A DNA stretch of 64,000 bases from Sporopachydermia quercuum (taxonomy: Eukaryota). Positions 17,831 to 49,439 of the stretch are shown one piece after another (position 1 is the first letter of the stretch; every line of letters begins with the position of its first letter). The stretch covers positions 1 through 64,000 of the forward strand of contig BCGN01000005.1 of the NCBI GenBank assembly GCA_001599295.1, in the 5' to 3' direction. The notes beneath the pieces were generated by a model. The model saw only the letters and a program-made list of their open reading frames with translations, ran no database searches and was not told the origin of the DNA. The translations under genes and the position numbers were made by a program.

Positions 17831-18335
17831 TTAGAACTTCTCAGCTAAAACTTTGCTCACTTCCTCCTTATAACGTCCTTTTATGATGACTTTCTGACTT
17901 ATAACATTTGCTTTGATATTGTCCTTTTTGACTTCAGGAATAGCTGCAAGTAAATCCCTTTTAAGTTGCTAGTAGATATAAATGTTAGTACATACTACAG
18001 TAGATATACTTCTAAAATGTTTTCTATCAATCAAGAAGAAAACATGGCATAGTTATTGATTANCAGCGTCAAAAACTCCTCTCACTTACCACAACATCTC
18101 CGACCACATTCTTGACCAAAGTCACAATTGAATTGCCTCTCTTATGATCAATATACACTGGAAGTCTTCCAAAACGACTCCTTGAGACAAAGTAATTAGT
18201 GGTACCGAAATCATGACCGATTAGATCACTTGGCTTAATTTCTGAAAGCTTTGGTAGTACTTGGACCTTCGCCTGTGTTGATTGGAATCGATTGCTGATT
18301 CTCGTGAATAGAGGTATGAACCGTGAGTTATTCAT
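17831..18335 (-). CDS. IMG2: Mitochondrial ribosomal protein mL49; 2 exons (18335-18090, 17968-17831)
   Basis: YFVSRSRFGRLPVYID...KNVVGDVV|QLKRDLL...IIKGRYKEEVSKVLAEKF*. Donor GTAAGT at 18089, branch TACTAAC at 17990-17984, TAG acceptor. Next to RSA4, as in S. cerevisiae. Confidence 0.93.
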
Positions 18336-18822
18336 TTCCAAGCAAGTGACTATAATAGATGATGCGGGTTATAGAGCTATTGCCGTAGGAATCAAATTCG
18401 TTTGAGCTTCTGTTCAGATTTGAAAAAAGATATTGAGTAATATGATTGTGGATTAACCTAACCGTTGATAATTTTGCGATTTGTGTGTAAGAGTTTGGAG
18501 TTGTAAAATATTTCACAGAAGTAATGGTGTTTGGGTTTATTTCTGGAGGCGAGACGCGATGTTATATTATAATGGGATTCTCAGTGACAAGATTTGTTTT
18601 CATAAGTCACGGGAGGTCATATTGGTATTTCAGAATTTTTTTCTCATAGATAGACAACTACAGACGAAAGTGAAATGTATAGTCTATTCTAACGTATAAA
18701 CTAGTATTAATATTCTATTTTTCATATGTATACAGGTGACATTTTGTATGCTGAAAATGAAGTCTTATTATACTGTGTCTGTGGCTACAGGCCTGAGGAA
18801 ATATGAAAACTCGTGTAGAATC

Positions 18823-20364
18823 TTAATGCGACCAAAGTCTCAGCATTTTATCCTTACCACCAGAAGCAACCCTAGTGCCATCAACACTCCAATCTACTGA
18901 ATAGACCTCGTCTACGTGACCAGGCAAATCAACTGCTAGTTTCTTGGTTCTCACGTCCCATATTTTCAGTGTTGTATCCTTTGAAGAGCTGACCAACATC
19001 CTATTATCGCCAGACCATGCACATTGATAAACAGAAGCTACGTGTCCTCTGAAAGTAGAAATAAACTTTCCTGTTCTACCATCCCAAAGTTTCACAGAAT
19101 TGTCAAATGATGCTGAAGCAATATATCTTCCATCGGGTGAAAATGACACATGATTAACAAGCTTTTGATGACCTGTCATTCTTGTTATTGGCTTAGAAGA
19201 CTTAGATGGTTCCCATAAATACATTGTGAAATCATCACTGGCAGTAACAATCCGTTCCGTTTCTCTACCATCAACGAAAGCAACTTTCCTGTAATTTTCA
19301 TACGCACGGCTTTTCAATTCCTGGGGTGATAATTTCTTAGGCTGAGATTTTCCATTGTAATCAAAAGGACCAATACGCAAAGCATATTCAGTTGATAGTG
19401 AGATATGATTGACCCAATGAGCATGCGACTTGAGAACCTGAACACACTTCCCGTCTTTAGAATCCCATACTCTGATCGTTTTGTCATGTGAAGTTGAATA
19501 AATTAATCCTTCCCCACCCCATCTGACGCATGACACAGCTGAAGTATGTCCTGAAAACGTGAACAAAGCTACTCTTCTAATGATATCCCATACTTTAACA
19601 GTACCATCTTTTGAACATGACACTAATCTTGGATTTTGCCCCTCAGGTACTAGATGTAGAGGTTCCCAAGATAATGCAGAAATCCATTTTGCATGTCCTG
19701 TCAAAGGTTCACCTAAAGGTTTTCCTTTCTTACCATCCCACAACCTAATTGTACTATCCATTGAACCTGTCGCAATGATCTCTCCATTAGGACACCAAGC
19801 AACACACAAAACCCAATTACTATGCCCTGACAATGTGGCAACAGGAGTTTGGGTATCACAATCCCATATTCTGGCCGTAGAATCTCCAGCTCCTGTCACA
19901 AGCCTACTAGATGAATATGGTGCAAATTGACATGCTAATATTGTACTGGAGTGTCCGCTAATAGCTGCTGATGATCTAGTGATTGGTTTCACTTTGAAAA
20001 CAGCTCTAGGTGTATAAACGATAGTGAGAAAATCTTCTGTAGTTTTAATTCCTGGTTTTATAATAGAGCTGTATAGATTGTCGGGAATATCAGTAACGTC
20101 TCCTGATTTCTCATCAAGAAGCAGTGAAAATGAATATGGTACTGGATCATCTTCATTATCAGCTAACTGATTCACTAGCATTTCCAATTGTTTGATTGTA
20201 GCATTTCCTGGGACACGAATAGAAGCTCCAAGTCCTTCTCCAGTGTCTGATGCTTGAAATTTCACCAGAACATTCGGAATATCGTCAGGTATCAATTCAA
20301 CTTCTCGCTCCTTTTGAGCTTCTCGTTTCTGCCGTTTCGACAATGGAGGAATCACTGTGGCCAT
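18823..20364 (-). CDS. RSA4: Notchless-like WD40 ribosome assembly protein
   Basis: NLE/UBL domain (IPPLSKRQKREAQ...VKFQASDTG) followed by WD40 repeats ending LRLWSH. Confidence 0.96.
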   Translation of the reverse strand: MATVIPPLSKRQKREAQKEREVELIPDDIPNVLVKFQASDTGEGLGASIRVPGNATIKQLEMLVNQLADNEDDPVPYSFSLLLDEKSGDVTDIPDNLYSSIIKPGIKTTEDFLTIVYTPRAVFKVKPITRSSAAISGHSSTILACQFAPYSSSRLVTGAGDSTARIWDCDTQTPVATLSGHSNWVLCVAWCPNGEIIATGSMDSTIRLWDGKKGKPLGEPLTGHAKWISALSWEPLHLVPEGQNPRLVSCSKDGTVKVWDIIRRVALFTFSGHTSAVSCVRWGGEGLIYSTSHDKTIRVWDSKDGKCVQVLKSHAHWVNHISLSTEYALRIGPFDYNGKSQPKKLSPQELKSRAYENYRKVAFVDGRETERIVTASDDFTMYLWEPSKSSKPITRMTGHQKLVNHVSFSPDGRYIASASFDNSVKLWDGRTGKFISTFRGHVASVYQCAWSGDNRMLVSSSKDTTLKIWDVRTKKLAVDLPGHVDEVYSVDWSVDGTRVASGGKDKMLRLWSH

Positions 20365-22149
20365 GTTGGATGAGAGTGTGAATGTGGTTGAAACTGGTCA
20401 ATGTATTTCAAAGATAATTCCAACTATAAACAGGAGATTTAATTTGAGTTTACTGTTATTTAATCGACAAAAAGTGAATAAATTAGATTGTTTAAGATAT
20501 CTTAATGTCATGATAGGAATGAAGGAATTATCTACTAACAAAAGATTTTTTTTATTGTTGTGTGGATTATGTCATGCACAGTGTCAGACATTCATATCTG
20601 ACATATGATAATTTCTGTTCTTNTGTGACGATTAATATATGACTTACTTATGTCTCGACTAAATATTTGTTTATCACATAATCAATGACTTAGGGTTCAT
20701 ATGCAAATTTCGGAAATGATATCGGATAATAGGTTTTTCTTATCGTTTGTCGTAATGCTGTTTCTCCACTCTTAATTTCGGATAACTTCTCGGATGGTTC
20801 TTTTTATGATCTGGAGACGATTTAGGTGTGATTTGAGTCATTTTGGGTAAATGTTGATCAAAATCTTCAGATTCGGATATTTCTTCATTTTTTTTTTGGA
20901 TCAACATCTCGCTGGTTTTCGGCATTTAAACATTGAAAATGGCTACTAAACGATTTGTCTCCCTTGTATGTGGATCGGGAGGTTTCAAAACAAATGTGGA
21001 TACAAGATAAGCATTTGAGATAAAACAATTGCCTTTTATGGACTCCATTACTCTATTCGGNCATATTTTTTAACTTTATTACTCAATTTACTAACAGAAT
21101 CGGTAATTTCATTACCAGGTTTGGAGCGATTTCAAGAAAGTCAGTGGCATGGAGCCGACTTTGCTTAGTAAAGTAAGACGAAAGAGCCAAGAAGGGTAGT
21201 AGAACCGACAATATCGAAATATAACTTCTGCTCAACTGAATAGGTTCCGGTGATTTTTGTTTTTTGGTCGAAGTTTCGGTTTCTAACGATTNCTAAGCTG
21301 AACATTGTTGATGCTGTTCCAGGTAAAGTGACTCTCGGCTTAACAATTGAGAAGAAGCACACAGTAAGTTGAATTCTCCTCTTGGGAACAGAAGATAACG
21401 GAGTGACATGGATATTTCAACTTGGTCGTGAAGGTTTGAGTTGAGGCTAGTTTGCTCAGAAAGGAAAATGGGATACTGGCTAGGGGAATTTACTTTAGTC
21501 CTATAGAGTATACACTGCTGGTTTAGCGAAAACAGAGCTACTTTCTACTCTGAATTTTCAGTTCACGAACCCAGATTTGTTTCCCGATAAAATCCCTTTT
21601 CGGTATCTCACTTCTGATATGTCCTTTACATATTCAACTCCGTCATCTAGTCATCTTTTCCAGATTTCTNTCATGGTTATGAACTGTCGGATGTCATTTC
21701 AGTATTCCTATTTACTAAAACTTCTAGAATCGGTTACAAATACTTCATGGTGCCACAATAGCCGCTTTAGTTGATCTTGGGGGCTCATTGGCTGTGGCTT
21801 CACGTGGCTTATTCAGCACTGGTGTCAGTACTGATTTAAACGTTACGTATTTTTCGTCGGGAGGGAAAGTTGGTAAGTATATTATTTTGGGAACTACGCC
21901 TTTTTAAAAGGAAATTTCGATGGAAGGGTAAAAGAGGAGCAAGCAGGGAGTTGAAACTGGTTCAGATGTTCTCCAGAATTGGGTGGGCTATTTCTGATGA
22001 GGTTCAATTATGAGAGCAAGATACACAGGTATATTTATTCTGGTATTTCACAGGTATCTGTTTTCATTTATGATTTTCTTTCTTTCTTCTCCTTCCACTC
22101 TTTTCCGTTGTTATTCCCCTTTGAATGTTTGGTTTCCCCCTGAGCACAC

Positions 22150-23950
22150 ACTAACATTATAATGTCCAAAGATGATGAGGTAATTATTGTATGTATTGTT
22201 GTTCAGTTTCTGAAGAATTCTGACCAGTTATGCTATCTTATTGATTGATTTCAGCTGTTGATGCTTTTTATTGTTCATTTGAGTACTTTTTTGTTATGAT
22301 AGTATTTNCTATCGATATACTGCATTGATTATGATGCAGTGTTACAATTAATATGATAAGGTCAATTTATGCAATTATTGCTATTTTGTCATTGATTGTC
22401 CACTAAATCTGTTGAATCTTACTACTTTTTTTGCAGGATATTGTTTTATAACGGTAGAACTAATATATTGTGAATATTCTCGGCAAATATTGTTTAAGAT
22501 TGCTGCTACTACAACCACTAACCTCACATTACTAGGAATGCAATTTAGATCGTATGGGAAGAACTCTTGCATTTACATCAATCAACTTTTATAATGGTAA
22601 ACATAAACATTTATTTGCAAGAGGATCACATACAAAATATATTTCAAACGCTTTGAAAGACGTAAGTTTTATCTGATTATTGTCGGGAGAATACGATTGC
22701 ACTATTGAGATAATTGATGTCAAAGAACAACAATTGAGAGGACAANAAATGTAAGGACAATAAGTGAAGTGACAAAAGAGAAAGATGATACATAAATTAG
22801 TGCTGGCGTGAAAAATTAGATTGTGCATTTACCAACAACAACATCTATGCATCTACGAAACAAACATTATACAAAGGATATCAGTAATTAAAACGAAATC
22901 AAGATTTGAACAAAACTATCTGTATGCTATTATACAATACGAGACTTATCATTGAATAACATCAAATCATTTAGTCTTTCTAATTAATGTTCTCATATTA
23001 ATTCATCTTGTATTTGACATAAATAGGTTATGTCATTTTTTATTGTATATTACTAACAGATATCTTAGCCTTTAAATCAATTACATGAACATAAGCCGGT
23101 TAGCGAATAGAATGATTATTGTTACTGTTCAATAATCACTAGATATAAGTGAAGTTCTTGTTGAATTGAGTATAAGGCTTCTGAAATGTGATTATTTTCA
23201 ATTATTTTTCAGTAGAAATAGAAATAAAATGTAGTAATTATTGTTAATGGAGAATAATAGGTAACCAAAATATTACAATTAATGCAATTAATGTTTCTCA
23301 ATGTAATTACAATTATCATATATTGTTTGCTGGTATATTAATGTATTTTTGTTTTCTGAATTCTATCAAAAAATCCAAAATAAATTTCCTACGTCATATA
23401 CTTGATATAAATCAAAAGAATCTTCCAGAGATGAAATAGAACTATGAACACAAATCGATGTAAATAAGAAACAATAACAGTTGCATTAATTCAAAGTTGT
23501 AATTACAATAATCACTCCCAGCTGTTACAGTAATTCAACTAATTTCCCCTTCAGAAATGCATTAGCTAATAAATGTAATGAAATTGGACTATATAGATAT
23601 GTAATATCTTTTTCTGCACAGAAGCTAGGAATAGAAATATCATTCAAAAACTGCTATGATATTGTTGCATTAATGAGACATTGAACAGTTATTGTTACAG
23701 TACCGCGACAACAATCAACAGCTTGTCATAATAAACAGCACAATATTAACATTAACTGAAACAATAATTTATACACCAACAAATGCTTTCATGCAGCGAT
23801 CTCTATCGAAACCAAATTATCCTGTTTCAATTAATTATAACATGGCTTCATCATAAAATACAAATAACAAAACTCATGTAATATATCATTTATTAAATAT
23901 TTCTAATCCTACATCTATTAATAATACATGAACACGATCCAATAAATCTA
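22150..23950. other. Gene-free AT-rich core with dispersed short repeats; candidate regional centromere or replication origin
   Basis: Within a 3.6 kb ORF-free gap, very AT-rich, with recurrent GTAATTA/TTACAAT/TGCATTAAT motifs and CCG/CGG-rich DNA on both sides. Function is inferred only. Confidence 0.4.
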
Positions 23951-23975
23951 ACAGCCTTCATCCTCATCTTTATCC

Positions 23976-26900
23976 TCATTCTTCTCCTAAATCACTAACT
24001 TCTCTTAATGCATCAAACCATTCATCATTTAATAACTCAACTGCTGTTGGTCTGATATTCGCATCAGAAATGAAGCAACGTTTTAGGAACTTCCTTCCTT
24101 GCTCTGATAATTGTTCTGCTGTTGGCAATGCCGGATAATGACCTGCTGCTACATGATACATGATTGCCCACTCATTATCTAAATTACTCCAAGGTCTTCT
24201 TGCAGTTGCCATTTCTAAAATTACACATCCTGCAGCCCAGATGTCAGGGGCTCCCTTATTTGATGTTTTACTACCAGTAATTGTCTCAGGTGACATATAC
24301 ATAGGTGTACCTGTCATTTTACCGGCATTACTACTTGCAGTACTTGCGTCCGTTCCACAATCACCTGCGCTTGTTCCTGAGGATCCAGCTGTTCCCAGAG
24401 TTCCGGATGTACCCGAAGCTCTTAACGATAATAGCGAGGTGCCTCGGCCATCTGGCCAGAGGACTTTTGCTGCTCCAAAATCAATCAATTTAAGTACTCC
24501 TGAATGATCTAACAGAATGTTTTCCGGCTTAATATCCCTATGAACAACTCCTGATTTATGCAGATAAGCGAGCCCTTCCAATAGCTGTAATGTATAAAAT
24601 TGAATCACTGTTTCGTCTTCAATTGGTCCGTGTTCTAACAAACCTGCCAATGATCCACCTTGACAGTATTCCATGAATAAATATACACGATCTCTATGCA
24701 CTTCAACACCGAAGAATTGAACAATATTCGGATGGTTTAACCGTTCTAGAACTGACATTTCGTCTCGGATTGATTGTCCAAGTGTTTTCAAGGCCTGTGA
24801 ATCATGGAACCGAATATCTTTCACTGCCATTAACCCACCGGTGTCCAAATTAATTGCTACATAAACCGAACCAAATGAGCCACCTCCGATGAATTTTCCT
24901 TGTTGCCATCGGATTGAAACTGAGGAGAGAGACGATGCAAGGGCAGTTAAAAATTGGTCTTCTTGCCGAGATGAGTCTAGAACTTTACCTACAACGTTTT
25001 GCGCTTCCGAAAATTCCCTTCTGGCAGCCTCAAGATTGGCTAGTTTTATCAATCGGTTGTCTTGTATCCGTTGTTCTAACTCCTCTTCTTGGTATGCTAA
25101 CCGTTCAATTGACTCTTGACGAGATTGTACCATTCGAAGTCTATCTGCTGCTGCTCTCCGAGCTCCCATAACGTCTACATGCGAAATCAAAATGCTCATA
25201 AGGTTACCGACACCTTGTTTAAGCCGGGCAAACTTAGGCTCTGAGATTCCCAATACATTTTTCTCCCATGTCATTTCCATCACAAAGTCTAGCGCGGTTA
25301 CAGCCCACCGGAACGTCTTCGGATCTGTTGGAACGCAGTCCTCATTGAGGAATGACACCCATTCTACTGCCAAAGTCATCATTTCCTCAATCAAGGGTTT
25401 TTTCCGATGGGGCTCTGTGTGCCGAGATATACTCAAGCCGAAATCTCGGCAAAAGATGAAAAGCGATTGTAACAAGTCCTGAACGGGTAAGTTCTCTCCT
25501 TGTTTGCGAATAACCGGAAGGCCTTGGATAACTCTGATTCCCAATAGGGTAAACTGTCGAGATATTTTATCCAGTTCCCGGTTAACTTTCGGCAATGAAC
25601 AACATCGCAGAACTATAGTTTCCATAATATCTGAGAATATAGCTTGGAAATTATGTCTGGCTTGTAATAATTCCCGGTATTGGCCCTCAACAATCAGCCG
25701 CATATGACCAGGCCGAAGGTCCGAGAATCGCTTCGGGGTACTAAGAGTTAATCGGTACACGTCGCCTGTCCAGGACACAGGATTCTGGACAGATATTCCG
25801 ATTACGTAGGCAGGGTTATTTTCAGACGGTTCGGTGCAGTTTTCACCTAACATTGCGTTTAGTCCAGAGTTATTGTAAACCTCAATTCCGCAGGATCGGA
25901 TGATCCGGTCAATGCGGTTTTTCCTTCCTGCTAAAGCGTTATTTCCAAACACATAAACTCCGTCAAGTTCTGTAACTCCATTGTAAATAAGGAAATGACC
26001 CGATTCGGCCAACCTGTTAAAAAACTCCGACTCGGCTTCACTAATACTTCTTCGGTTCCGAGTTTTCTCCCCATCCGATCCAATTTCATTTCCATCCGAC
26101 CCGAGTAGCCGAAGTTCACATGCATTCATAAACCGTAAACTCAAATTATTAGAAAACCTCAATAGCTTCCGCTGTAACCCACCCAAATTCTCAACAGTAC
26201 TTGTATACCAACCGGACATCTCATTAGCATCTTTCCATTTTGCTGGCCCTCGGAGTTGCATCTTTTGGTACGATAAGAGCCGAGATGCCAATTTTAGCAC
26301 CAACGAACTGAATTGTTCGGCTACTTCTACTCCGCCTCCGGGAACAACATCTCCAAGGTTTTTCAGGAATTCCCAGTGTTTCTCCAACTCATCCACTTCT
26401 TTGAAAGTTCTGAATGGCCGTAAAGAATCCAATAACTTTTTACCTAATAAAGAAAGAAAGAAATGCACACATTGCAGCATAGCTGCATTAAATTTCTCAT
26501 TATCTGTAGCTTTTGATGCATAATTCGGTTGCCAATTTTCCTTTGGAGTGAAAAACACGTCAACTTTGTTCTTAATTTGCATCGATAACCGAATATATGT
26601 TGCAAAATCGTTGATTAGCGTGTCAATGATCATGTAGGTCAATGCGGGTAAGCTGCGGGCATATGCAATTCTAATGCGGATCACTTCTTGCATTAGTCTC
26701 CTTGGAAATAAGACCAATACAAATAAATCCTCTACATAACTTGGTAGTTTCATAGCTATGAAAAGGTCGAACATTTCAATGGCAGTTCTTTTCGCTTTAA
26801 TTGCCAGACATTCGTATTTTTCTATTATAATCTTCTCAATAAACGTATCCAATTCAGGGTACTGTTTTAGTATTGATTCGGCAAACGATGATCCCGTCGG

Positions 26901-28826
26901 ATCGTTGGTAGGAGTTGATCCGTTGATTCCGATATTAAGGGTTGCATTGGGAACAGTGCCCGTCGTAGAGGTTACCTCGGGTACTAGTGCTCCGTTCTCA
27001 ACGGAACTAGAACCAGCGACCAATAGCGAGCTCTCGGAAACCATTGATACCCCGCCTCCTAAACTCTTCCGAGCTCTCGGAGCACTGACATCCAATTCAT
27101 CATTTCCTATCTCCTTTTTCATCCGATTCTTCACGTCCCGAATACTAGTAGTTATGTAGTACCATGCCATCATAGCATCGAACCGTTGTAAATGTTCTAG
27201 TTCCAATTGCGCGTATTTCGATTCCAACATGTCGGATAAAGTAGGCCAGAATCGGGTCCGCGCCCAAGCCTTATCTAGGGCTTCGGCCACTTGTTCAACT
27301 GCTGGCGGATCGGACTCGGATGTTTTGCAAACGAAATTTTTACTTTCATTCATAATAGCAGTGGAAGCGGCACGGTTGAATTCAATAATCTGTTCCTCGG
27401 TTTTAACGTCCCGTTTATGGATTTTGGCNTGTAATTCTATCCAAAGCCGCTGACTAAATTGTGCTTTAGCAAACGCTACATCGTTACTGGTTCCGGTTAT
27501 TCGGGTTTTCTCAGAACGGACCACGTCACCGGTTAAAACAGTTTGGAGCATTAATTGCCAAGCTCGGCGTTGGATTTGTTCTTCTTCCGGCAAGGAGTCC
27601 TGTAAGGAGACAGCTTGAGTTGGTGAATTTGGTTGGGTTGATCGGGGATCTGGGTTTACGGATGCTTCAGCTTCGATTGCTAATTGGAGATCATTTCCGA
27701 TATTACCAAAATTGGACTGATTGTTCCGACCTTTCGGCCGACCCGAAGAAAGAGCAGAGTCGTCCTCAGGTTCGGAATAACTATCGGAGGTTTCGGTTGT
27801 TCCATCCAATTCATTTGTGGTTATTGGCTGAGTGTAATACTCGTCAAACTGGTGGGTCATTAACTTCCAATATGACTGAGCTAATTTGTAAGCTTCAGCC
27901 GCTGGTGGGGCATTTGTTTGATGAGCGGTATGATGAGAGGTTCCGTGTTTTCTTTGGATTGTGTGTTGCTGAGGATTGTTAAAACTTCTACCCCGCGCTC
28001 GGTTCCGGCTTGATCCCGAAGAAACTGACGAGGTAACTGATCCAGTTGCCATTCCACCGCCAGAGAGGATCGGAGACGCCGTTGCCGTCGTGGATGCAGT
28101 GGTCGGAGCACCAGCGGTTCCAGAAGCCGAAGATTGAGTTGAACCCAGTGCCGGCCGGTTATGCCGATTGGGTGCATAAGTGCCTTTCATAGACATCCCG
28201 CTTGACAGCCGGCCCGGCGAAAGCTGCCGAGTAGCACTCCCTAGAGCCGAGATGTCCGATTCTGACCGGAGTACTGCGGGCGAATGTCCATGTGATTCCT
28301 GATAATACTGTTCCTGTAGCGCGTCTATCGTTTGCACGTTCATGTTCTGCATAGTGGCATTTGGTGATGCATTGTTCGAATGGGGAGGGGTATTCGCTGC
28401 GGAACCCGACGGAGATAACATGTTTGGCCTTCGGAGAGGTTGTTGCTGATGGGTAATATAAGGCGTTGTTACGGATCGAGGATTGCCAGGCCGAGATTGA
28501 AGATCGGAATTATGCCCGGACTGATCCGAAGAATCTTGGGGGTGATATTGATAGTCCCGCTCGTCCATGTTGAAGGAAGAAGAGCGTTTATTTTCAGCGC
28601 TTGAATAAGATAGCCCCGCGGCCGAAGCAGAAGAAGTAGCCACAGAAGGATAACCCCCAGAAGGAGGGGTAGGAAAAAAACCGCTTTGGTAAGGGCTTGG
28701 TGGGCTTTCTGGGACCGCTGCTGATATAAGAGTAGCGCCTTTTGGACCTATGGGGCTTCCTAAGTCTGTGTTTTCGGTACTCTGAGGGTTCTGGGGCCCT
28801 TTTGGGGTATTGTTCCAGGATGACAT
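23976..28826 (-). CDS. SSK2: MAP kinase kinase kinase of the HOG pathway (Ssk2/Ssk22)
   Basis: WQLMLQTVLTGDVVRSEK N-terminal domain; C-terminal kinase WQQGKFIGGGSFGSVY, HRDIKPEN, DFG, WSNLDNEWAIMYHV. First ATG at 28826. RSA4-SSK22 synteny. Confidence 0.95.
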   Translation of the reverse strand: MSSWNNTPKGPQNPQSTENTDLGSPIGPKGATLISAAVPESPPSPYQSGFFPTPPSGGYPSVATSSASAAGLSYSSAENKRSSSFNMDERDYQYHPQDSSDQSGHNSDLQSRPGNPRSVTTPYITHQQQPLRRPNMLSPSGSAANTPPHSNNASPNATMQNMNVQTIDALQEQYYQESHGHSPAVLRSESDISALGSATRQLSPGRLSSGMSMKGTYAPNRHNRPALGSTQSSASGTAGAPTTASTTATASPILSGGGMATGSVTSSVSSGSSRNRARGRSFNNPQQHTIQRKHGTSHHTAHQTNAPPAAEAYKLAQSYWKLMTHQFDEYYTQPITTNELDGTTETSDSYSEPEDDSALSSGRPKGRNNQSNFGNIGNDLQLAIEAEASVNPDPRSTQPNSPTQAVSLQDSLPEEEQIQRRAWQLMLQTVLTGDVVRSEKTRITGTSNDVAFAKAQFSQRLWIELXAKIHKRDVKTEEQIIEFNRAASTAIMNESKNFVCKTSESDPPAVEQVAEALDKAWARTRFWPTLSDMLESKYAQLELEHLQRFDAMMAWYYITTSIRDVKNRMKKEIGNDELDVSAPRARKSLGGGVSMVSESSLLVAGSSSVENGALVPEVTSTTGTVPNATLNIGINGSTPTNDPTGSSFAESILKQYPELDTFIEKIIIEKYECLAIKAKRTAIEMFDLFIAMKLPSYVEDLFVLVLFPRRLMQEVIRIRIAYARSLPALTYMIIDTLINDFATYIRLSMQIKNKVDVFFTPKENWQPNYASKATDNEKFNAAMLQCVHFFLSLLGKKLLDSLRPFRTFKEVDELEKHWEFLKNLGDVVPGGGVEVAEQFSSLVLKLASRLLSYQKMQLRGPAKWKDANEMSGWYTSTVENLGGLQRKLLRFSNNLSLRFMNACELRLLGSDGNEIGSDGEKTRNRRSISEAESEFFNRLAESGHFLIYNGVTELDGVYVFGNNALAGRKNRIDRIIRSCGIEVYNNSGLNAMLGENCTEPSENNPAYVIGISVQNPVSWTGDVYRLTLSTPKRFSDLRPGHMRLIVEGQYRELLQARHNFQAIFSDIMETIVLRCCSLPKVNRELDKISRQFTLLGIRVIQGLPVIRKQGENLPVQDLLQSLFIFCRDFGLSISRHTEPHRKKPLIEEMMTLAVEWVSFLNEDCVPTDPKTFRWAVTALDFVMEMTWEKNVLGISEPKFARLKQGVGNLMSILISHVDVMGARRAAADRLRMVQSRQESIERLAYQEEELEQRIQDNRLIKLANLEAARREFSEAQNVVGKVLDSSRQEDQFLTALASSLSSVSIRWQQGKFIGGGSFGSVYVAINLDTGGLMAVKDIRFHDSQALKTLGQSIRDEMSVLERLNHPNIVQFFGVEVHRDRVYLFMEYCQGGSLAGLLEHGPIEDETVIQFYTLQLLEGLAYLHKSGVVHRDIKPENILLDHSGVLKLIDFGAAKVLWPDGRGTSLLSLRASGTSGTLGTAGSSGTSAGDCGTDASTASSNAGKMTGTPMYMSPETITGSKTSNKGAPDIWAAGCVILEMATARRPWSNLDNEWAIMYHVAAGHYPALPTAEQLSEQGRKFLKRCFISDANIRPTAVELLNDEWFDALREVSDLGEE

Positions 28827-29317
28827 AGTAAGATTCGCAATCGAGTTAGGAAATACCGAAATTCGGATGTGCCGAGATACCACGGAGTATGAGGAGCTCC
28901 AGAGGGTATTTTAAAGAATAGTTGAAGAGGAAAAATAAGTGATCGTGGAAGTAGTTAGGTTTGTGAATTGTGATTTGATTACACAATGGGATGTGATGTG
29001 GTTAATAGGCACAAACCGAGGAAAGGATTGAGTGTCCGAAAGAGCTGGTGTATAAAACGGGGCCAAATTCAAATCAGAGAGTTTTGGTTAGTTAAAGATT
29101 GAAAGGAGATTGAATCTGGATAAATTGAGGTAACTGATACTAAAAATATAAGCCGGTTAACTGCAGGTGTTTTAAGGATTAGGAGTGATGATAAGGTGAA
29201 GTATATTGCTAAACAGGACAGGTAGGACAATAGGACAAAAAAGGGCCATTGATTTGGATTTAGTGGCTATTGATGATGTAAGCAAGAAGTAATAGGGATT
29301 GTCATGAGACTAAGAAC

Positions 29318-29343
29318 ATGTCCGAAAGATGTCCGAAAGATGT
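29318..29343. repeat. Tandem 11-bp repeat ATGTCCGAAAG (about 2.4 copies) in the SSK2/AGX1 divergent promoter
   Basis: atgtccgaaag atgtccgaaag atgt. Confidence 0.75.
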
Positions 29344-29958
29344 AACATACCTGAAAGATAGCAAAAAGGACTCAGATGATTTAAGATAATAGGCATAACC
29401 AGTATCAATGGGAAAGTACAGAGAGAGGCATATTAAACGGTTGTAAGCAATAAATTTCCATATTTCGAATTGCTGTCTAGCGAAAACTCACCATTTTCAA
29501 CCGCTTGCATGCTTTAATGTCCCATCCGTTCACTTATTATTTGAAACTGTCCAATAACAGATATCAGTAATGTCTCTCTGTCCAACGCTTTCATTGTCCA
29601 ATTTCACATGCCTTCTTGTAGCGTATTCTATCGGACTAAATCCTACTTCCAATACACTTTGTCCTTTCCCCACACTGTCCTGTCCGCAAATTTTACCAAA
29701 CGGTTCTGAATTTATCCTTTTCCAGTTCCAAATCCAACATGCCGAAAACATCAGCTCCTTCTGATGATTCATCGTATTATTTATCCATTACTTTCCGATA
29801 TAAGACCATTACCATACTCTATACGCTATATCTAATGCAAATTCTCGACAATTAAATCAGTTGGTATTTGATCTTTCAAGAATAGCATTTTTACTCTACA
29901 ACAACTAAGTATTTACTTACATCATTATTGACTATCCTAGTGATTTTAAAATAGATTG

Positions 29959-31239
29959 ATGTTTACTAGCAATTTACTAAGCAAAGTAAGTAAGATCAGC
30001 AGTCGAGCTTACAACAAAAGGATTATTCAGAATCAGTGCACAAGGACGTTTTCTAACGTAACAAGAGTACAATTCAAAAATAGCAAGATGGTTTCCAAAC
30101 AAGCAGAACATCCATTGACCATGATTCCCGGTCCTATTGAGTTCACCGATGAAGTCTTGGACTCAATGTCCACTCCTTCACAAGCTCATACATCTCCTCA
30201 ATTTATTGCTACATTCCAATCTGCTTTACAAAAATTGAGAAAACTCTTTATTTCTACAGATCCTGAAGCTCAACCTTTCGTTATTGCTGGTTCTGGTACT
30301 TTAGGCTGGGATATCACTGCTACCAATTTCATCAATCCTGGTGATGATGTCTTAGTATTGGTTTCTGGTTATTTTGGTGATTCTTTTGCTGATTGTTTGA
30401 AGATCTATGGTGCTAATGTTACTAAAATCGAAGCTGAAGTTGGTGATGAAGTTTCCCTTGATAAAGTAGAGAAAGAACTCATTAACAAGAAGTATAGATT
30501 AGTCACTGTTACTCACGTTGATACATCTACTGGTGTTTTGGCAAATATTGAAGCTGTTGCTAAGTTAGTGAAGGAAAAGAGTCCTGAAACTTTTGTTGTT
30601 GTTGATGGTGTTTGCTCTGTTGGTGTGGAAGAGATTCAATTCGATAAATGGGGTCTTGATTTTGTCTTAACTGCTTCTCAAAAGGCCATTGGAGTCCCAG
30701 CTGGTCTATCTATTTCCTATGCTTCTAGCAGAGCTGTTGATTTTGCCTTGAACAGAGCTACAGATTCTTCATACTTTGCTAACTTAAAGAAATGGACGCC
30801 TATCATGAGAAATTATGAAGCTGGTAAGCCATCTTATTTTGCTACTCCTGCTGTTCAATCTGTCACTGCTTTGAACACCTCTTTAACCCAAATTTTGTCA
30901 TCTCCTTTATCTGATCGTTTTGAAGTTCATGAGAAAGCTTCTAATGATTTCAAGGATAATATTGAGGGTTTAGGCTTGAAGTTAGTCTCTAAGAGACTTG
31001 TTTCTGCCAATGGATTATCAGCTATCTTCCTACCCGAAGGTATTGAAAACAGTCAGTTGTTACCATTGATTGCCAAGAAGAACATTGTTCTTGCTGGTGG
31101 TTTACATAAGGCATTCCCTACCAGATATTTCAGAGTTGGCCATATGGGTATTTCTGTTACTGGTGAAGGAAGAACTGATCTTGAGCAAACATTCAATGCT
31201 ATCAAGTCAAGTTTAGAAGAGCTTGGCTACAAGAAATAA
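29959..31239 (+). CDS. AGX1: Alanine:glyoxylate aminotransferase (class V PLP) with an N-terminal presequence-like extension
   Basis: LTMIPGPIEF, AGSGTLGWD, THVDTSTG, DGVCS, PLP lysine in TASQKA, FRVGHMG. In-frame ATGs at 29959 and 30088. Confidence 0.94.
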   Translation: MFTSNLLSKVSKISSRAYNKRIIQNQCTRTFSNVTRVQFKNSKMVSKQAEHPLTMIPGPIEFTDEVLDSMSTPSQAHTSPQFIATFQSALQKLRKLFISTDPEAQPFVIAGSGTLGWDITATNFINPGDDVLVLVSGYFGDSFADCLKIYGANVTKIEAEVGDEVSLDKVEKELINKKYRLVTVTHVDTSTGVLANIEAVAKLVKEKSPETFVVVDGVCSVGVEEIQFDKWGLDFVLTASQKAIGVPAGLSISYASSRAVDFALNRATDSSYFANLKKWTPIMRNYEAGKPSYFATPAVQSVTALNTSLTQILSSPLSDRFEVHEKASNDFKDNIEGLGLKLVSKRLVSANGLSAIFLPEGIENSQLLPLIAKKNIVLAGGLHKAFPTRYFRVGHMGISVTGEGRTDLEQTFNAIKSSLEELGYKK

Positions 31240-32805
31240 CCTCTTTTTTTATGAAATGTCAACGACAAATGATTGGGCTGTCGTATAAGTTATTACGAAC
31301 TAAAAAGGACATACAGATGATTCGATGGTGTAATTTGTTTGATTTGTAAGCAAGTAGACGCATCTCACAACAAGGACACCACTCTAAATACCATGGAACC
31401 CCCATGAACCGTACAACAGTAAGAATTTGGTACCAGAAACCACTGATTAATACTTTAGAATCTAATTAAGTCATTTTGCTTCCTATTTCCAGTTTTCTTT
31501 ACATCCTTGCTTACTTTATTCACGTTTTCATTGACTCTTCATTATAATGGTTCTATGACCTGTAATGAGACACTGCTCATCAGTACAATACATGTGTACT
31601 GATTGACTCAGGAATGAGCCACTTGGTCCCGAGTAGATTTAGGAATCTCCTGAGAAATGAATTGACATCAACTGGTTGCTGTAGATTGAATAGTGAGATT
31701 GTATGCAGAAAAGATGTAAATAGCGTTAGGAAGGGTAAAGCTATCGTCTGCCAGTGATTTTGCAAACTTGACACGAGTTTCTTTAATGATGATGATGATG
31801 AGTTTGCTATTATGTCGTTGCATTATTGTGATTCGAATATGCTAGCTATTACTTGTTGATAATATGCACGAGTATGCATTGTATCAGTAAATTACCGCAT
31901 TTTGCATAAACCATTCTGGCATATGGTTAACAAGATCTGTCAAGGTTAAACAACAAGTGATAATCGCTTTCGATTTGAGGCAAATACTTAAAAAGTATAT
32001 CTCTTACGCTAACTTATGTAAAATGTTTAAATGCTTCACATTCAAAACCTTTCCTCAACCTACTTAATTCTTACCATTGAGCTACCGGATGTCAATGGAA
32101 ACAACTCTTCTGTATATATATATGCAAGGCATGAGTTGTAAAATTTTCAATTACATGTTCTCTACATTTTGAATTCTATCATGAACATCTTCACACAGAT
32201 GCCTCATCATAGAGCAGTAAAAATTGTCTTAGTTTGGCTCAAATCTCTTTCTATAACTTTAAATGTACTCAACTAACTATTGTGTTACAGGAAAATCTGC
32301 AAAGGGCTTAAGATCACTGTAAGAATGAATCTCTCTATACCTGTTCACACACTCTCATGTACATTTCGCCATTATTGCACCACCTTACATACAGTACACC
32401 CATAACTTTGAACCTTATATTTTTTCACACATTCCCTGAAAAAACTTCTTCCTTAATAAATTTTATTCATAGCATCTTAGCGCTTAGTTGCCTACTTTTC
32501 TTCTTACGAATTCAGTTGAAAAATTCAATAGAGAATCACTAGAGATCTAACATCAGTTATTAATCAATCATTAATAGTCTGCAATATTAAAAAGTTACTG
32601 ATCAGAAAACTTTTAATACTAAAGATACCGCTAGAGATCAAAGGAATAATATAGTAGCTAAGGGAAGCACATATTATAACTTTGTGATATACAGGCAGTT
32701 GGAAGACAGGAATAATTTTTAAAAGAACCTTTTTTCAAGATTCCCGGCGCAGATTTAACTGTAAGCAATTCTGCTTCTTCCCCTCCTTCGAAGAAACAAA
32801 AGAAA

Positions 32806-34215
32806 ATGCCTTATGCATTGAGTGAAGCCCACAAGAAAATGACCCTTGGTCATTTGTCTGAAGTCGATCCTGATGTTAAGAGCATTATTGATGATGAAAT
32901 CGACCGTCAAAAGCATTCTATTGTTTTGATTGCTTCTGAAAACTTCACCACAACTTCAGTTTTCGATGCTTTGGGAACACCAATGTGCAACAAGTACTCT
33001 GAAGGTTACCCTGGTGCTAGATACTATGGTGGTAATGAACATATTGACCGTATGGAATTATTATGCCAACAAAGAGCCTTAGATGCTTTCCATGTTACTC
33101 CTGATAAATGGGGTGTCAATGTTCAAACATTGTCAGGTTCTCCTGCTAACTTACAGGTTTACCAAGCCATTATGAAGCCTCACGATAGATTGATGGGTCT
33201 TGATTTACCTCATGGTGGTCATTTGTCTCATGGTTATCAAACCGATACCAGAAAGATTTCCGCTGTTTCTACATATTTCGAGACGATGCCTTACAGAGTT
33301 GACTTGGAAACTGGTATCATTGATTACGACATGTTGGAAAAGACCGCTGTTCTATTCAGACCTAAAGTTCTTGTTGCTGGCACTTCTGCTTACTGCAGGT
33401 TGATTGACTACAAGAGAATGAGAGAAATTGCCGATAAGGTTGGTGCTTATCTCGTTGTTGATATGGCCCACATTTCTGGTTTGGTTGCAGCTCAAGTCAT
33501 TCCTTCTCCTTTTGAATACGCTGATATTGTCACCACAACTACCCACAAGTCTCTTAGAGGTCCAAGAGGTGCTATGATCTTCTTCAGAAGGGGTGTCAGA
33601 TCTGTCAACCCTAAGACTGGTAAGGAAATCCTTTACGACTTGGAAAACCCTATCAATTTCTCTGTGTTCCCTGGTCATCAAGGTGGCCCTCATAACCACA
33701 CTATTGCTGCTTTAGCAGTTGCTCTAAAACAGGCCCAAACTCCTGAATTTAAGGAATACCAAGAACAAGTTATTAAGAACGCTAAGACATTAGAGGCCCA
33801 ATTCAAGGCTCTTGGCTACAAGCTTGTTTCTGATGGAACTGATTCTCACATGGTTCTCGTTTCTTTAAGAGACAAGGGAATTGATGGAGCCAGAATTGAA
33901 TATGTCTGTGAAAATATGAACATAGCCCTTAACAAGAACTCTATCCCTGGTGATAAGTCTGCTTTAGTTCCCGGAGGCATCAGAATTGGTGCTCCAGCCA
34001 TGACTACCAGAGGTATGGGTGAAGAAGATTTCAAGAAGATTGCTGATTACATTGACAAGGCTGTCAGATATGCCAAGCAAGTTCAAGAATCTTTACCTAA
34101 AGATGCTAACAAACTTAAGGATTTCAAGGCTGCTATCAACGCTGGTTCTGAAGAACTTACTCAATGGAAAAAGGAAATCTACGATTGGGCTGGTGAATTC
34201 CCATTGGCTGTTTGA
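32806..34215 (+). CDS. SHM2: Cytosolic serine hydroxymethyltransferase
   Basis: [10 protein letters not shown]-terminus without a presequence, [20 protein letters not shown]; highly biased codon usage. Confidence 0.97.
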
Positions 34216-35398
34216 GTCCAATGGTAATGGTAATGTAAACTTGGGAATGCATAACGTGATATTTTACTGATTTTTTTCCAGTTTTATGTTCTTTCTGTCG
34301 TTACAACTTGATTATTGGATATTACGTGTATATATAGCTATCACAGCTTTCAACAAAGGTGTGGTTTTGTTTCTAATCGGCTTAATGATTCTTTCTCTTT
34401 AATCAAGGTCATCATTTTTACTATCACTTGTTCAGGATGTTATGCTTATCCGTATAATCTAGTTTCTCAATTTTCTATTAAAAACATTGATTCATTTCAA
34501 CATAATCAATTTCAATTATTGTATATTAAACTTGTTATAATTGTAGATAGCATGAAGCCATACTCCTTTTCTATCAATATTGCCTGCCTTATAGTGCTCA
34601 TATTTAAAATGACATAATCAACAAATGATTCCCATCCTCAATAGAGAATGATCACATGATCATTAAGTACTCCAAAATATTTCAGACCAAAAAATTATTT
34701 TCGCAACGTCGTTTGTAGGTTTAACTTGCATGACTATGCATTCCCTACATAAGACAGATGCATATTCAATTATTACTTTTTATGGTAATTTCCCTTATTA
34801 TCTAACATTTTTCCTTAGTTTGGGACTTCTTTTACGAGCCATCAGGGAATCAAATAAAAGATCTGAACTTGTGATGAGCAATTCTGGAAAAAATCTTTTA
34901 TAGCAGAAATAGAAATGAAGTTAGTTTCAAATATATAAGACTGAATTGTTGGCTATTAGGAGAAACTTTCTGAGTTTTGAGAGTAATATTTGATACAAAT
35001 GACATGATAGTACCGGATAGATAGAAATAGATTGACAGGTGGCAGGATAATCATTGGGAGTAGGGGATAGATAGAAATAAATAGAATACAATCTTGTTGG
35101 TTCTTGATTGAGATCGTGAAAATAGATCACGGCAAAAACAAAAGAATAGAGAAGGATCTAAGTATTGGAGTATCGCTTGCAAGATTAAAATCTAGAGGTG
35201 GATCAGCATACTATGATAAAGATAACCAGCAGACGGTAGCGGGAACAAGGTCTAAGAATTATCTACTAAACATCATTGTACATTGCATGCACTTCCTCAC
35301 CATTTGCATAATCATCGCATATTGCATATTACTGTCAGTTTTATTAGCCCTGGCCTAGATTAACATCAAAGGATCAGACGTCATATATACCGTTCAAA

Positions 35399-38116: not shown

Positions 38117-38245
38117 ATATAATATTAGCTGAACTATATGCTCAATAGATGGAATATCTATTACCTTACCTTTTATCTTACCCGTTTTACATATATAAAC
38201 ATATTCAATAAACATTTAATAATTCTATGCATAAAACTTTATGAT

Positions 38246-38740
38246 TCACCCTTTCTGAAAGTCCCATTCGTTGGAATTAAAATCATTAGAAAATACTGAC
38301 TCGTTGTTTTCGTATACTTTCTCTGTATACTCAAATTTAAGTTCTTTGGTCAGCTGTATTGTTGATAAACATACACTGAGTTTTGGGTACTGCCTCCTAG
38401 ATCTACTATTATTTGAAGCGTCAAGACTATTAGAAACATCGATTTTTTTGCCGAGTTCTTTATCTTGTGTTTTCCCTGTTATTTGTACTAGTTTATTGTA
38501 TTGATATATAGTAATGTTCCTTTCTTTCATTATCGCTTTCACTATCTCTACAACAGCTATCAGCTTGTCATTGCCATTTGGTTTCAGTCTCATATCAGGA
38601 ATCAGTTGTACAATTGACATTCTATCGTTGTTATTTTCTTCGTATCTCTCTTTCAGTAGAAGCCTCTCAATTTGATCAACACGGGACCGTATTTTGTCAG
38701 ATGTTCGTATTCGAACTGTACTCACCTGTACTGCTGTCAT
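38246..38740 (-). CDS. POP6: Alba-fold RNase P/MRP subunit (Pop6/Rpp25-like)
   Basis: IRTSDKIRSRVDQI...KLIAVVEIVK...IYQYNKL...YPKLSVCLS follows the Pop6 pattern (ISKNDNIKKSV...KMLSILEIFK...IYQWNKL...VPIL) as recalled. Confidence 0.65.
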   Translation of the reverse strand: MTAVQVSTVRIRTSDKIRSRVDQIERLLLKERYEENNNDRMSIVQLIPDMRLKPNGNDKLIAVVEIVKAIMKERNITIYQYNKLVQITGKTQDKELGKKIDVSNSLDASNNSRSRRQYPKLSVCLSTIQLTKELKFEYTEKVYENNESVFSNDFNSNEWDFQKG

Positions 38741-42048: not shown

Positions 42049-42057
42049 TCACGTGAC
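42049..42057. promoter_or_regulatory. Cbf1-type E-box (TCACGTGAC) upstream of ORM1
   Basis: Exact GTCACGTGA (minus strand) about 600 bp upstream of the ORM start. Motif match only. Confidence 0.35.
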
Positions 42058-45033: not shown

Positions 45034-45472
45034 CACGTGATGTAAACAGATTCAAATCAGGAAATATGATACTATGTGATATATTTTATTAGTACCTCAG
45101 CTTACGCTGACCTGTAAATATCAGTACAGTGAAGGTCGTCAAGTGAGAATCTGTTCAAATGTTAATTGTTGATATTGCTGATATAACGAATTGCGTTTGG
45201 ACTAGTTGATGGAATTTTGAATTAATGATTGGTTTGTTGTACTAAACTTGCCGAGCCAGCACGTATGAACAGCCTTGAATAAATTTGTGTGATAAGTTTG
45301 GTTGTTTTTCTTTTACTTCCTTGAAATAGTNGAATATCTTAAATTGTTTAGCCAATTTATGGTGGTTGTTTTCACCTTTCTAAAGAGCTCATAGATACTG
45401 ACAGCAAGAGGCAAGCGATCAACTGACTTTCGTCGTCGATATACCATTAGGATCAACTTTGAAATCGTCAAA

Positions 45473-49415: not shown

Positions 49416-49439
49416 AGAGTGTGGAATTGGAAGATCCGC

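Follow-up and report, generated by a model that had tools for sequence, protein, structure and literature searches.

Why should one short part of a yeast chromosome be crowded with CCG and CGG words in exons, introns, and promoters alike? This question is raised by a 64-kb window of the Sporopachydermia quercuum genome (the whole stretch of 64,000 nucleotides that was analyzed), in which an SSK2-type MAPKKK gene and part of a convergent thioesterase gene carry such words at high density. The sequence-only reading of this locus had proposed a position-limited overlay that rewrites both intergenic and synonymous sites. This proposal held up, and introns are affected as well; the words are raised on both strands, in all codon phases, and in promoter DNA. 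The background for the comparisons below was the remaining 54.4 kb of this one window, with 20365–29958 left out.

Extent and unit of the enrichment

Four earlier hand counts of CGG+CCG were re-obtained exactly (6 in 20701–20940, 8 in 25981–26100, 1 in 58081–58200, and 6 in 21901–23700), and the excess that they implied is present throughout. Relative to expectation from the rest of the window, CCG/CGG counts were 182 vs. 31.1 in the SSK2 ORF (5.85-fold), 23 vs. 7.6 in 20701–21900 (3.0-fold), and 19 vs. 7.3 in 28827–29958 upstream of SSK2 (2.6-fold). When local GC content (0.43 vs. 0.354) was allowed for, CCG/CGG still ranked first at 2.8-fold, followed by CGA/TCG at 1.6-fold. However, the enriched unit is not the trinucleotide in general but its four-base form TCGG/CCGA, with 84 copies in the SSK2 ORF (9.3 expected), 18 in 20701–21900 (2.3 expected), and 10 in 28827–29958 (2.2 expected). 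Among NCGN words, TCGG/CCGA is enriched 7.9-fold in patch F1 (Table 1) and 9.1-fold in SSK2, whereas the patch regions have TCGA at 0.7–0.8 times and ACGT at 1.2 times the background, and ACGA/TCGT is at 1.7-fold in 20701–21900 (9 vs. 5.3) and 1.0-fold in SSK2. Because these words show no comparable excess, the signal is neither GC content nor CpG. Markov analysis placed the signal at the 3–4-mer order, with TCGG at 1.6–1.8 times the order-2 expectation (background 0.86) and TCGA at 0.28–0.46 times; T is strongly preferred on the 5' side of CGG, and no significant information was found past the 4-mer in the field sites.

A likelihood scan for TCGG/CCGA clusters, for which 300 random placements gave a top gain of 11.9, found two significant clusters, at 24709–29036 (87 sites, log-likelihood gain 96.9) and 20710–21857 (18 sites, gain 20.9). 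All other clusters in the window had gains of 4.3 or less and none was significant. Segmentation by CGG/CCG placed the main patch at 24322–28883 (184 sites, 40.3 vs. 6.6 per kb, gain 153). Outside the patches, the 104 TCGG/CCGA sites in 54.4 kb are about half the mononucleotide expectation, as estimated from this one window. The dense zones described earlier, from 20.7 to 21.9 kb and through SSK2 and its promoter, are thus both present, but the outer edge at about 29.8 kb is soft, as 29037–29800 is only weakly enriched (gain 4.3). There is no single domain of about 9 kb around a special AT-rich core; instead, two convergent genes each carry a patch over their 5' part.

Table 1. Patches and neighboring features in the window (strand "." for features without one).
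Feature	Coordinates	Strand	Description
IMG2 (mitochondrial ribosomal protein mL49)	17834..18368	-	Two exons, Pfam Img2
RSA4	18823..20364	-	WD40/RSA4-type Pfam matches; divergent promoter common with thioesterase gene
Patch F1	20710..21857	.	18 TCGG/CCGA sites in 1148 bp; cluster scan gain 20.9; about 230 bp upstream of thioesterase ATG, exons 1–4, introns 1–3
Thioesterase gene, PaaI/4HBT-type	20941..22661	+	At least 5 introns; 3' end uncertain
Word-poor AT-rich "core"	21858..24321	.	GC 0.24–0.30; 9 CGG+CCG in 21901–24321
SSK2-type MAPKKK gene	23976..28826	-	1616 codons, intact; Pfam Pkinase E 8e-63
Patch F2, main CGG/CCG and TCGG/CCGA field	24322..29036	.	Segmentation and cluster scan
Weak field tail, SSK2 upstream region	29037..29800	.	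Cluster 29322–29795 alone not significant (gain 4.3)
Tandem repeat, 11-bp unit ATGTCCGAAAG	29318..29343	+	2.4 copies, 100% match, Tandem Repeats Finder
Class-V aminotransferase gene	29959..31239	+	Divergent promoter common with SSK2

In F1, site density is alike in exons, introns, and promoter (about 12–25 sites per kb by our own count), and 15 of the 18 sites are TCGG on the + (sense) strand, weakly above the approximately 11 of 18 estimated from the local T/G skew. We placed the thioesterase exon boundaries by visual inspection of GT...TACTAAC...AG signals; the exon at 21728–21871 has a Pfam 4HBT match (28.7 bits, E 1.6e-6, cut-off 20.6), and the remaining exons are predicted. F2 starts roughly 210 bp before the SSK2 start codon, covers nearly the whole ORF, and becomes sparser from 5' to 3': CGG+CCG counts per 500 bp, from 28001 down to 24001, are 32, 21, 22, 13, 20, 21, 17, 14, and 9, and the final CGG codon is codon 1362. 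Upstream of SSK2 (28827–29958), eight of the ten TCGG/CCGA sites are in the SSK2-sense orientation, and a third near-copy of ATGTCCGAAAG was seen in the sequence at about 29031–29041. Three parts make up the core: the 3' exons and long 3' introns of the thioesterase gene, a 1.3-kb terminator region between the two convergent genes, and about 350 bp at the 3' end of SSK2. No ORF with a family match was found in the terminator region, no Rfam family reached its gathering score anywhere in the window, and the dinucleotide ratios of the core are not RIP-like.

The genes on either side are unaffected. CGG encodes only 2 of 27 Arg in RSA4, and the aminotransferase gene lacks CGG (0/14), CCG (0/17), and TCG (0/42). 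The best protein matches of the local SSK2 are SSK2/Ssk22 from many yeasts (35–50% identity). The order IMG2–RSA4–SSK2, which we take to be ancestral from its occurrence on S. cerevisiae chromosome III, was supported by Pfam matches for all three genes (for Img2, 18072–18368 with E 1.6e-9 at profile positions 2–38 and 17834–17968 with E 2.4e-6 at positions 39–82); the thioesterase gene lies between RSA4 and SSK2.

A chimeric assembly or a contaminant is hardly credible as the source of this pattern. The window contains 36 single or double N positions, which indicates that its sequence is a consensus of some kind. However, the SSK2 ORF is unbroken across the patch edge, the gene order is as expected, and all sampled words of 20365–29958 (100%) were found in run contigs from two studies (2016 and 2023), possibly of the source strain. 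The TCGG/CCGA overlay is a real, DNA-level signal.

A DNA-level signal in the codons of SSK2

SSK2 uses codons that its neighbors avoid, as had been noted earlier: CGG encodes 40 of its 98 Arg (4% in 19 other ORFs), CCG 19 of 81 Pro, and TCG 31 of 165 Ser (19% vs. 5%). As SSK2 is a stress gene, rare codons read by scarce C34 tRNAs (CGG, CCG, TCG, and GCG) might keep the kinase scarce or condition-dependent, and the in-frame excess (CGG 40 vs. 3.8 expected; CCG 19 vs. 4.7) together with the lowered use of the common codons AGA, GCT, GGT, TCT, and AAG fits this idea. Yet the words do not follow the reading frame. With its own protein sequence and the codon usage of its neighbors, SSK2 would be expected to hold 57 CGG+CCG rather than 182; CGG (97 vs. 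30.1 expected) and CCG (85 vs. 26.9) are raised in all three phases, out-of-frame and antisense words as much as in-frame ones, and TCGG and CCGA each occur 42 times. Codon neighbors matter as well. Of the 20 CGA codons in SSK2, 15 come after a codon that ends in C, vs. 8 of 53 in 19 neighbors (Fisher p 2.6e-6), and CGG is preceded by T in 18 of 40 vs. 1 of 17. When the synonymous codons of SSK2 itself were shuffled, a C-ending codon before CGA was expected 4.0 ± 1.9 times (15 observed), a rule that goes beyond codon usage, and total CpG was as expected (237 vs. 244). SSK2 codons are picked in context so that TCGG is spelled on either strand. In addition, the same word fills the introns of the neighboring gene and promoter DNA, nothing similar occurs in SSK2 of 37 other fungi, and the excess is missing from other long ORFs of the window that are presumably expressed at low levels (CGG in 5 of 56 Arg codons of a Zn-cluster factor and 0 of 40 of a RabGAP). 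The non-coding and out-of-frame signal largely refutes rare-codon tuning, which we regard as quite improbable.

The GC content of SSK2 (0.41–0.55) and its CpG observed/expected ratio of about 1.0 (vs. 0.35 and about 0.6 in the background) might point to a recombination hotspot with GC-biased gene conversion, or to an escape from CpG decay as in a CpG island, and the 5'-to-3' gradient is akin to a conversion polarity gradient. Physically clustered GC3 heterogeneity is also described for budding yeasts (PMC9246145). However, no general AT-to-GC shift of silent sites was found in SSK2: its GC3 (0.39 vs. 0.29) is raised by NCG/CGG and by some codons ending in C, and the two-fold codons (AAA/AAG, CAA/CAG, GAA/GAG, and TTA/TTG) look native. 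Where CGG, CCG, or TCG is not formed, AAG falls (25% vs. 44% in neighbors), and CAG (32 vs. 28), GAG (34 vs. 25), TTG (22 vs. 25), and CTG (7 vs. 8) show no shift of this kind. Neither does the enrichment spread across the shared promoters, as RSA4 has 10 and the aminotransferase gene 4 CGG+CCG (16.6 and 12.4 simulated). Nor are all CpG contexts relieved; TCGG/CCGA alone is raised 8–9-fold, whereas TCGA, ACGT, and ACGA are as depleted as in the background (except for ACGA/TCGT in 20701–21900). Moreover, the GC content of F1 is almost that of the background (0.33–0.40) despite 8-fold TCGG. Both processes are thus very improbable sources.

The local pattern is specific to this lineage among the SSK2 loci compared. 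At 37 loci from other fungi, CCG+CGG observed/expected had a gene/flank ratio of 0.78–1.25 (median 0.99) vs. 3.28 here, and TCGG observed/expected exceeded 1.6 at none of the 37 (2.95 here). A block introgressed from a related yeast by homologous recombination, and later interrupted midway, would accord with patch edges that partly disregard gene ends (F2 fades inside the kinase domain and F1 stops inside the thioesterase gene), and in an alignment of 27 sequences the local SSK2 diverges most. Introgressed compositional blocks have been described in Lachancea kluyveri (PMC9246145). Nevertheless, the in-field/out-of-field identity ratio (0.58) is inside the range of other deep lineages, and composition differs only in CGG-type words, with two-fold codons that are native-like or AT-richer, so a donor would need a bias specific to TCGG rather than to GC. 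Protein searches with SSK2 and RPN2 led to one and the same wide range of yeasts, and no close donor was among them. Together with native two-fold codons and conserved gene order, this makes a foreign origin improbable, as the sequence-only reading had judged.

Candidate origins of the two patches

A place-dependent mutation or repair regime that happens to favor TCGG/CGG, with no dedicated binding protein, is a possible but less than likely origin. Such a regime might consist of biased or error-prone repair synthesis near a fragile or origin-like AT-rich spot, or of a co-transcriptional process from two transcription starts. All site classes are affected in proportion to their freedom, since the words touch 22.4% of SSK2 codons in variable alignment columns and 14.5% in conserved ones, and the Gly/Ala/Arg/Pro share of the SSK2 protein (0.257) is the highest of 121 sequences (maximum of the others 0.253), whereas RPN2 from the same window has an ordinary composition. 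The patches lie next to each other, both begin about 210–230 bp before an ATG and thin downstream, their sites lean to the + strand at the left (15/18) and to the - strand at the far right (8/10), and the density of heterozygous sites falls right at the core. On the other hand, the specificity covers four bases, and the core and both divergent neighbors are untouched. A process linked to transcription or resection should leave an asymmetry, but the ORF is strand-even. The expected precursors are also intact: one-step precursor words show no depletion (TTGG/CCAA 1.5-fold, TCAG 0.84-fold, TCTG 1.1-fold, and TCGA 0.8-fold), and the CAG>CGG and CTG>CCG signature suggested earlier was not seen. At Arg columns conserved in orthologues, CGG occurs in 10 of 28 although the usual Arg codon of the genome is AGA, which requires synonymous change in at least two steps, including a transversion. 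The absence of precursor loss and the CGG at conserved Arg make the word look like an attractor reached via several routes rather than the product of one mutational channel. We know of no mutational signature of this TCGG type. RNA structure and repeats were rejected or disfavored as causes.

We tentatively favor, at somewhat below even chance, a fixation bias toward zinc-cluster-type CGG half-sites as the process that wrote the fields. Changes that create TCGG/CCGA, or loosely any CGG/CCG, would have been preferentially fixed over a long time at all sites free to vary, in two stretches that begin about 210–230 bp before the respective ATG, one over the first 1.1 kb of the thioesterase gene and the other over almost the entire SSK2. 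A putative protein that reads single CGG half-sites with a 5' T would occupy both loci, and the bias would come either from selection for a dense landing array or from mismatch repair or gene conversion that the protein steers in a biased way. We infer this reader of the word, what kind of protein it may be, and what its occupancy would do, from the properties of the word itself. Single half-sites of this kind are what monomeric fungal Zn2Cys6 domains recognize. In the non-coding parts of the fields, TCGGA(A/T/C) recurs, the perfect 11-bp tandem contains the word, and a 22-nt repeated pair has two sites 12 bp apart; judged by sequence, these look like factor sites.

Several points temper this preference for a CGG-reading protein. 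Site spacing had no nucleosome-scale, 10-bp, or 3-bp period and no preferred inverted, everted, or direct distance, and therefore gives no positive sign of a binding architecture. A Gal4-type dimer array was rejected, as gaps of 0–30 bp in all orientations are near random (about 1.7 or 3.5 per gap). To our knowledge, no factor requires about 87 sites scattered randomly over 4.3 kb of coding DNA. Moreover, an identical static picture would result from a bias of mutation or repair that depends on ±2 context, and selection and drive are indistinguishable from one sequence. A bolder and quite improbable version is a lineage-specific chromosomal code, in which each genome would have a few TCGG fields, perhaps one on every chromosome, on either side of an AT-rich core. 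A zinc-cluster protein that recognizes CGG would coat these fields and mark a structural site, such as the flank of a centromere, a place of cohesion or pairing, or a domain that is silenced or tethered. The words would be upheld by selection or protein-directed conversion strongly enough to reshape the composition of the SSK2 protein.

If a protein reads the word, the patches represent a new way to mark a place on the chromosome within sequence that also encodes protein; should a bias of repair or mutation have written it, they are a new, local, and highly context-specific signature. The overlay is strong enough to make CGG the main Arg codon of SSK2 and to shift the amino-acid make-up of its protein. 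Under either reading, codon-usage models that assume one mutational background per genome would misread such genes.

Comparison with known systems

Regional centromeres of yeasts lie in GC-poor troughs, and the CCG of the point-centromere element CDEIII is read by the zinc-cluster protein Cep3. The locus resembles these in having an AT-rich stretch between CCG-bearing flanks. However, the local core is not gene-free, as it comprises 3' portions of two genes, including introns, and we know of no CBF3 complex outside the Saccharomyces family.

Chi and uptake sequences are comparable word biases, as is the influence of very-short-patch repair on word counts in E. coli. In cyanobacteria, HIP1 is reported to be a hyper-abundant word in coding DNA (PMC5861425). 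As in HIP1, Chi, and uptake sequences, a short word is over-represented here via synonymous choices in any frame. Those words are genome-wide, whereas TCGG is limited to two patches in 64 kb. A genome-wide iterated word was rejected on this one window, as TCGG elsewhere has an observed/expected ratio of about 0.5 and no other cluster has a gain above 4.3.

Among zinc-cluster factors, AlcR and Rgt1 use multiple CGGANNA sites without fixed spacing, but only 12 field sites fit this pattern on the + strand. The S. pombe factor Pho7 is a monomeric Zn2Cys6 protein with the site 5'-TCG(G/C)(A/T)xxTTxAA, and such monomeric factors read 12–14 bp (PMC6265462). The 8 bases with which the two strong Pho7 sites begin, TCGGAAAT and TCGGACAT, also open two local sites (PMC6265462), but the agreement ends there and the local sites do not fit the full 12-mer consensus. 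The likeness to all three factors lies in a lone CGG with a 5' T as core, without a partner triplet at a fixed distance, and in several copies clustered upstream of genes. The fields differ in having about 105 sites over 5.5 kb, mostly in coding DNA and on both strands, and in carrying no information past the 4-mer.

Finally, the silent-site differences known among yeast genes form broad GC3 domains. As in those domains, silent-site usage at this locus differs between neighboring genes in ways for which expression does not account. However, GC3 domains are defined over windows of about 20 genes, whereas the fields described here span 1–4.5 kb, have sharp limits, and consist of one four-base word that runs through genes, introns, and promoters.

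Composition and word specificity of the enriched patches

The window has a GC content of 35.5% and comes from an AT-rich, intron-rich relative of the budding yeasts. In the protein collection searched, the closest matches had 62% identity for RPN2 and 39–50% for SSK2, and no near relative was found there; none of the other scanned windows was a look-alike. All sampled words of the stretch are present in run contigs from two studies, possibly from the source strain itself. Neither Rfam at gathering score (no match) nor a tRNA search (zero found) returned any RNA gene in the window. The thioesterase gene (20941–22700), which has five or more introns (two of them about 300–350 bp long), was missed by the ORF listing, and its exons other than the Pfam-supported one were called by eye from the sequence. 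Split genes of this kind may also be hidden in the ORF-free interval 46400–50868.

Features around the enriched patches, with word counts (observed vs. expected)
Feature	Position	Strand	Remarks	CCG/CGG	TCGG/CCGA
IMG2	17834–18368	-	Two exons; Pfam Img2		
RSA4	18823–20364	-			
Thioesterase promoter and 5' part	20701–21900			23 vs. 7.6	18 vs. 2.3
4HBT-type thioesterase gene	from ~20941	+	Multi-intron; exon 21728–21871 matches Pfam 4HBT (E 1.6e-6)		
SSK2 (MAPKKK)	23976–28826	-	1616 codons, intact	182 vs. 31.1	84 vs. 9.3
SSK2 upstream region	28827–29958			19 vs. 7.3	10 vs. 2.2
Class-V aminotransferase gene	from 29959	+			

The sequence-only reading had described a CCG/CGG-enriched domain of about 9 kb (20700–29800), and its four hand counts were all exact on recount. 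With the remaining 54.4 kb of the window and its 19 other ORFs as background throughout, the enrichment survives correction for the local rise in GC (2.8-fold for CCG/CGG; at most 1.64 for other trinucleotides). A likelihood scan for TCGG/CCGA found two significant clusters, at 24709–29036 (87 sites, gain 96.9) and 20710–21857 (18 sites, gain 20.9), against a top gain of 11.9 in 300 random placements; all further clusters in the window had gains of 4.3 or less. When delimited by CGG/CCG, the main patch spans 24322–28883 with 40 sites/kb vs. 6.6/kb. The field does extend upstream of SSK2 as proposed, but its tail toward 29.8 kb is weak. Elsewhere, a small group of 12 CGG/CCG sites within 422 bp (gain 9.0) occupies ORF-free DNA at 49436–49857; it does not reach significance for TCGG, and its four TCGG sites are all on the plus strand.

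The enrichment is not one of GC or of CpG. When the ten NCGN classes are compared, TCGG/CCGA is up 8–9-fold; in the SSK2 ORF, CCGG, GCGC, and CCGC/GCGG are likewise up 5–9-fold and TCCG/CGGA 7-fold. TCGA (0.7–0.8x) and ACGT (1.2x) stay at background level, and ACGA/TCGT reaches 1.0x in SSK2 and 1.7x in 20701–21900 (9 vs. 5.3). Two-fold codons show no shift from AT to GC, with AAG dropping from 44% to 25% and CAG, GAG, TTG, and CTG unchanged. GC-biased conversion and escape of the CpG-island type are contradicted by this word specificity and by the unaffected neighboring genes. Markov analysis placed the signal at the order of 3–4-mers, with TCG in the patches followed by G rather than A, and detected no significant information past the tetranucleotide. 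An apparent 31x enrichment of the longer motif TCGGAT/ATCGGA is accounted for by lower-order words, URS1-like TCGGCGG does not occur in the fields, and the words have no fixed spacing or periodicity. A second word, GGACA/TGTCC, was observed in the SSK2 upstream region (29200–29700; 13 vs. 1.3 expected), with GGACA copies at about 29213–29240 and TGTCC copies at about 29540–29690, three of the latter being followed by CAA(T/C).

A DNA-level signal overlying the codons

As had been read from the sequence, SSK2 uses codons that its neighbors avoid: CGG accounts for 41% of Arg codons (4% in the neighbors), CCG for 23% of Pro codons (6%), and TCG for 19% of Ser codons (5%). The signal is nevertheless at the DNA level and not at the codon level. 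SSK2 contains 97 CGG and 85 CCG, compared with 30.1 and 26.9 from synonymous resampling with the neighbors' usage (1000 runs; maxima 44 and 47), and the excess is seen in each phase and is equal for the two strands. All six control ORFs were at or under their simulated values. When SSK2's own codons were shuffled among synonymous positions, boundary-spanning CCG was still in excess (29 vs. 14.0 ± 3.0), as was xxC|CGA (15 vs. 4.0 ± 1.9), and total CpG matched expectation. CGA follows C in 15 of 20 cases in SSK2 vs. 8 of 53 in neighbors (Fisher p 2.6e-6), and CGG follows T in 18 of 40 vs. 1 of 17. Codon choice is therefore context-dependent, spelling TCGG on either strand. In the thioesterase gene, introns and promoter have the same TCGG density as exons, so the earlier claim that non-coding and synonymous sites are overwritten alike is borne out.

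Several ordinary causes were considered. Tuning by rare codons is contradicted because the signal is also present out of frame, on the antisense strand, and in non-coding DNA. No RNA structure was seen: mean z-scores were 0.01 (sense) and -0.02 (antisense) in 13 windows of 300 nt, compared with -0.05 to 0.52 in three control ORFs. No repeat family accounts for the field, the sole perfect tandem being 11 bp x 2.4. The signal in the patches is real, strong, and specific, and no ordinary cause tested accounts for the TCGG excess.

SSK2 orthologues and the origin of the patches

SSK2 orthologues were compared at the levels of protein and locus. Among 121 sequences, the protein encoded here ranks first in Gly+Ala+Arg+Pro share (0.257, vs. 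a maximum of 0.253 in 120 orthologues) and last in Lys share, and the local RPN2 is ordinary. Where alignment columns are variable, 22.4% of the codons are touched by the words, compared with 14.5% where they are conserved, and CGG is used in 10 of 28 conserved Arg columns. The part of SSK2 inside the field has diverged somewhat more than the kinase end outside it (identity ratio 0.58 vs. a median of 0.67 in comparable pairs), a value inside the range of other deep lineages.

A foreign origin of the patches, which the sequence-only reading had also thought unlikely for SSK2, is disfavored by native two-fold codon usage, by retained gene order, and by the lack of a comparable TCGG bias at any of 37 fungal loci. 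These loci, each with at least 3 kb of flank, come from 80 SSK2-like loci on metagenome contigs, of which 39 with long matches were tabulated. Their gene/flank ratios for CCG+CGG observed/expected are 0.78–1.25 (median 0.99) vs. 3.28 here, and TCGG observed/expected at the comparison loci is at most 1.6 vs. 2.95 here. Across the loci compared, the TCGG field is not general to SSK2 genes. One metagenome orthologue (L077:6001–10692) has a GC content of 0.55–0.64 with flanks of 0.37–0.53, without a TCGG excess.

Geometry of the fields and candidate mechanisms

Both patches start about 210–230 bp upstream of an ATG and continue into the gene. Along SSK2 in the 5' to 3' direction, CGG+CCG counts per 500 bp thin out from 32 to 9, and no CGG codon occurs after codon 1362 of 1616. 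Both genes across the shared promoters (RSA4 and the class-V aminotransferase gene) are unaffected. Non-coding TCGG sites lean toward the sense strand (15/18 and 8/10), for which local base skew accounts in part, and the SSK2 ORF has no strand asymmetry. The stretch between the patches, previously seen as an AT-rich core, is indeed AT-rich but is not a special core: it comprises the long introns toward the 3' end of the thioesterase gene, 1.3 kb of convergent terminator region with no ORF or known RNA, and the end of SSK2. Its dinucleotide ratios are unlike those of RIP. A centromere- or origin-linked setting, as suggested earlier, may apply, with no result here for or against it. N occurs at 36 positions of the window (one double, the other 35 single); the contexts are unremarkable, and these positions look like masked heterozygous SNPs. 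Of them, 29 are in 1–22746 (1.3/kb), one in 22747–35455, six in 35456–51226, and none beyond. The drop in heterozygosity seems to fall exactly within the AT-rich core and resembles the outcome of mitotic recombination.

After these rejections, what remains is a fixation bias toward one word. A local mutation or repair regime without a binding protein, close to the position-dependent regime proposed earlier, is ranked second, as an unlikely explanation. When amino acids were polarized at conserved columns, none of Q>R, W>R, and L>P dominated (by plurality, K>R 10 and R>K 7). No single precursor word is depleted and the synonymous routes are multi-step, which suggests an attractor-like process rather than one mutational channel.

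Literature searches gave no account of a TCGG or CGG field confined to patches in a yeast, and the finding is best regarded as a new form of local compositional heterogeneity that is word-specific and limited to patches. A Zn2Cys6 factor gene (Zn_clus and Fungal_trans_2; 6353–10042, minus strand, 1229 aa) was observed 11 kb from the field, with no link to the TCGG word.

A classical factor is less favored because there is no information past four bases and the spacing is Poisson. Ranked first, tentatively and by analogy, is a protein that reads CGG half-sites; its array may be kept up by selection for occupancy or else by protein-directed repair bias. This ranking draws on the monomeric zinc-cluster factor Pho7 of S. 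pombe, which contacts a TCGG core and has strong sites starting with TCGGAAAT and TCGGACAT (PMC6265462). The same 8-mers occur in the two local upstream regions, one of them within the perfect 11-bp tandem.
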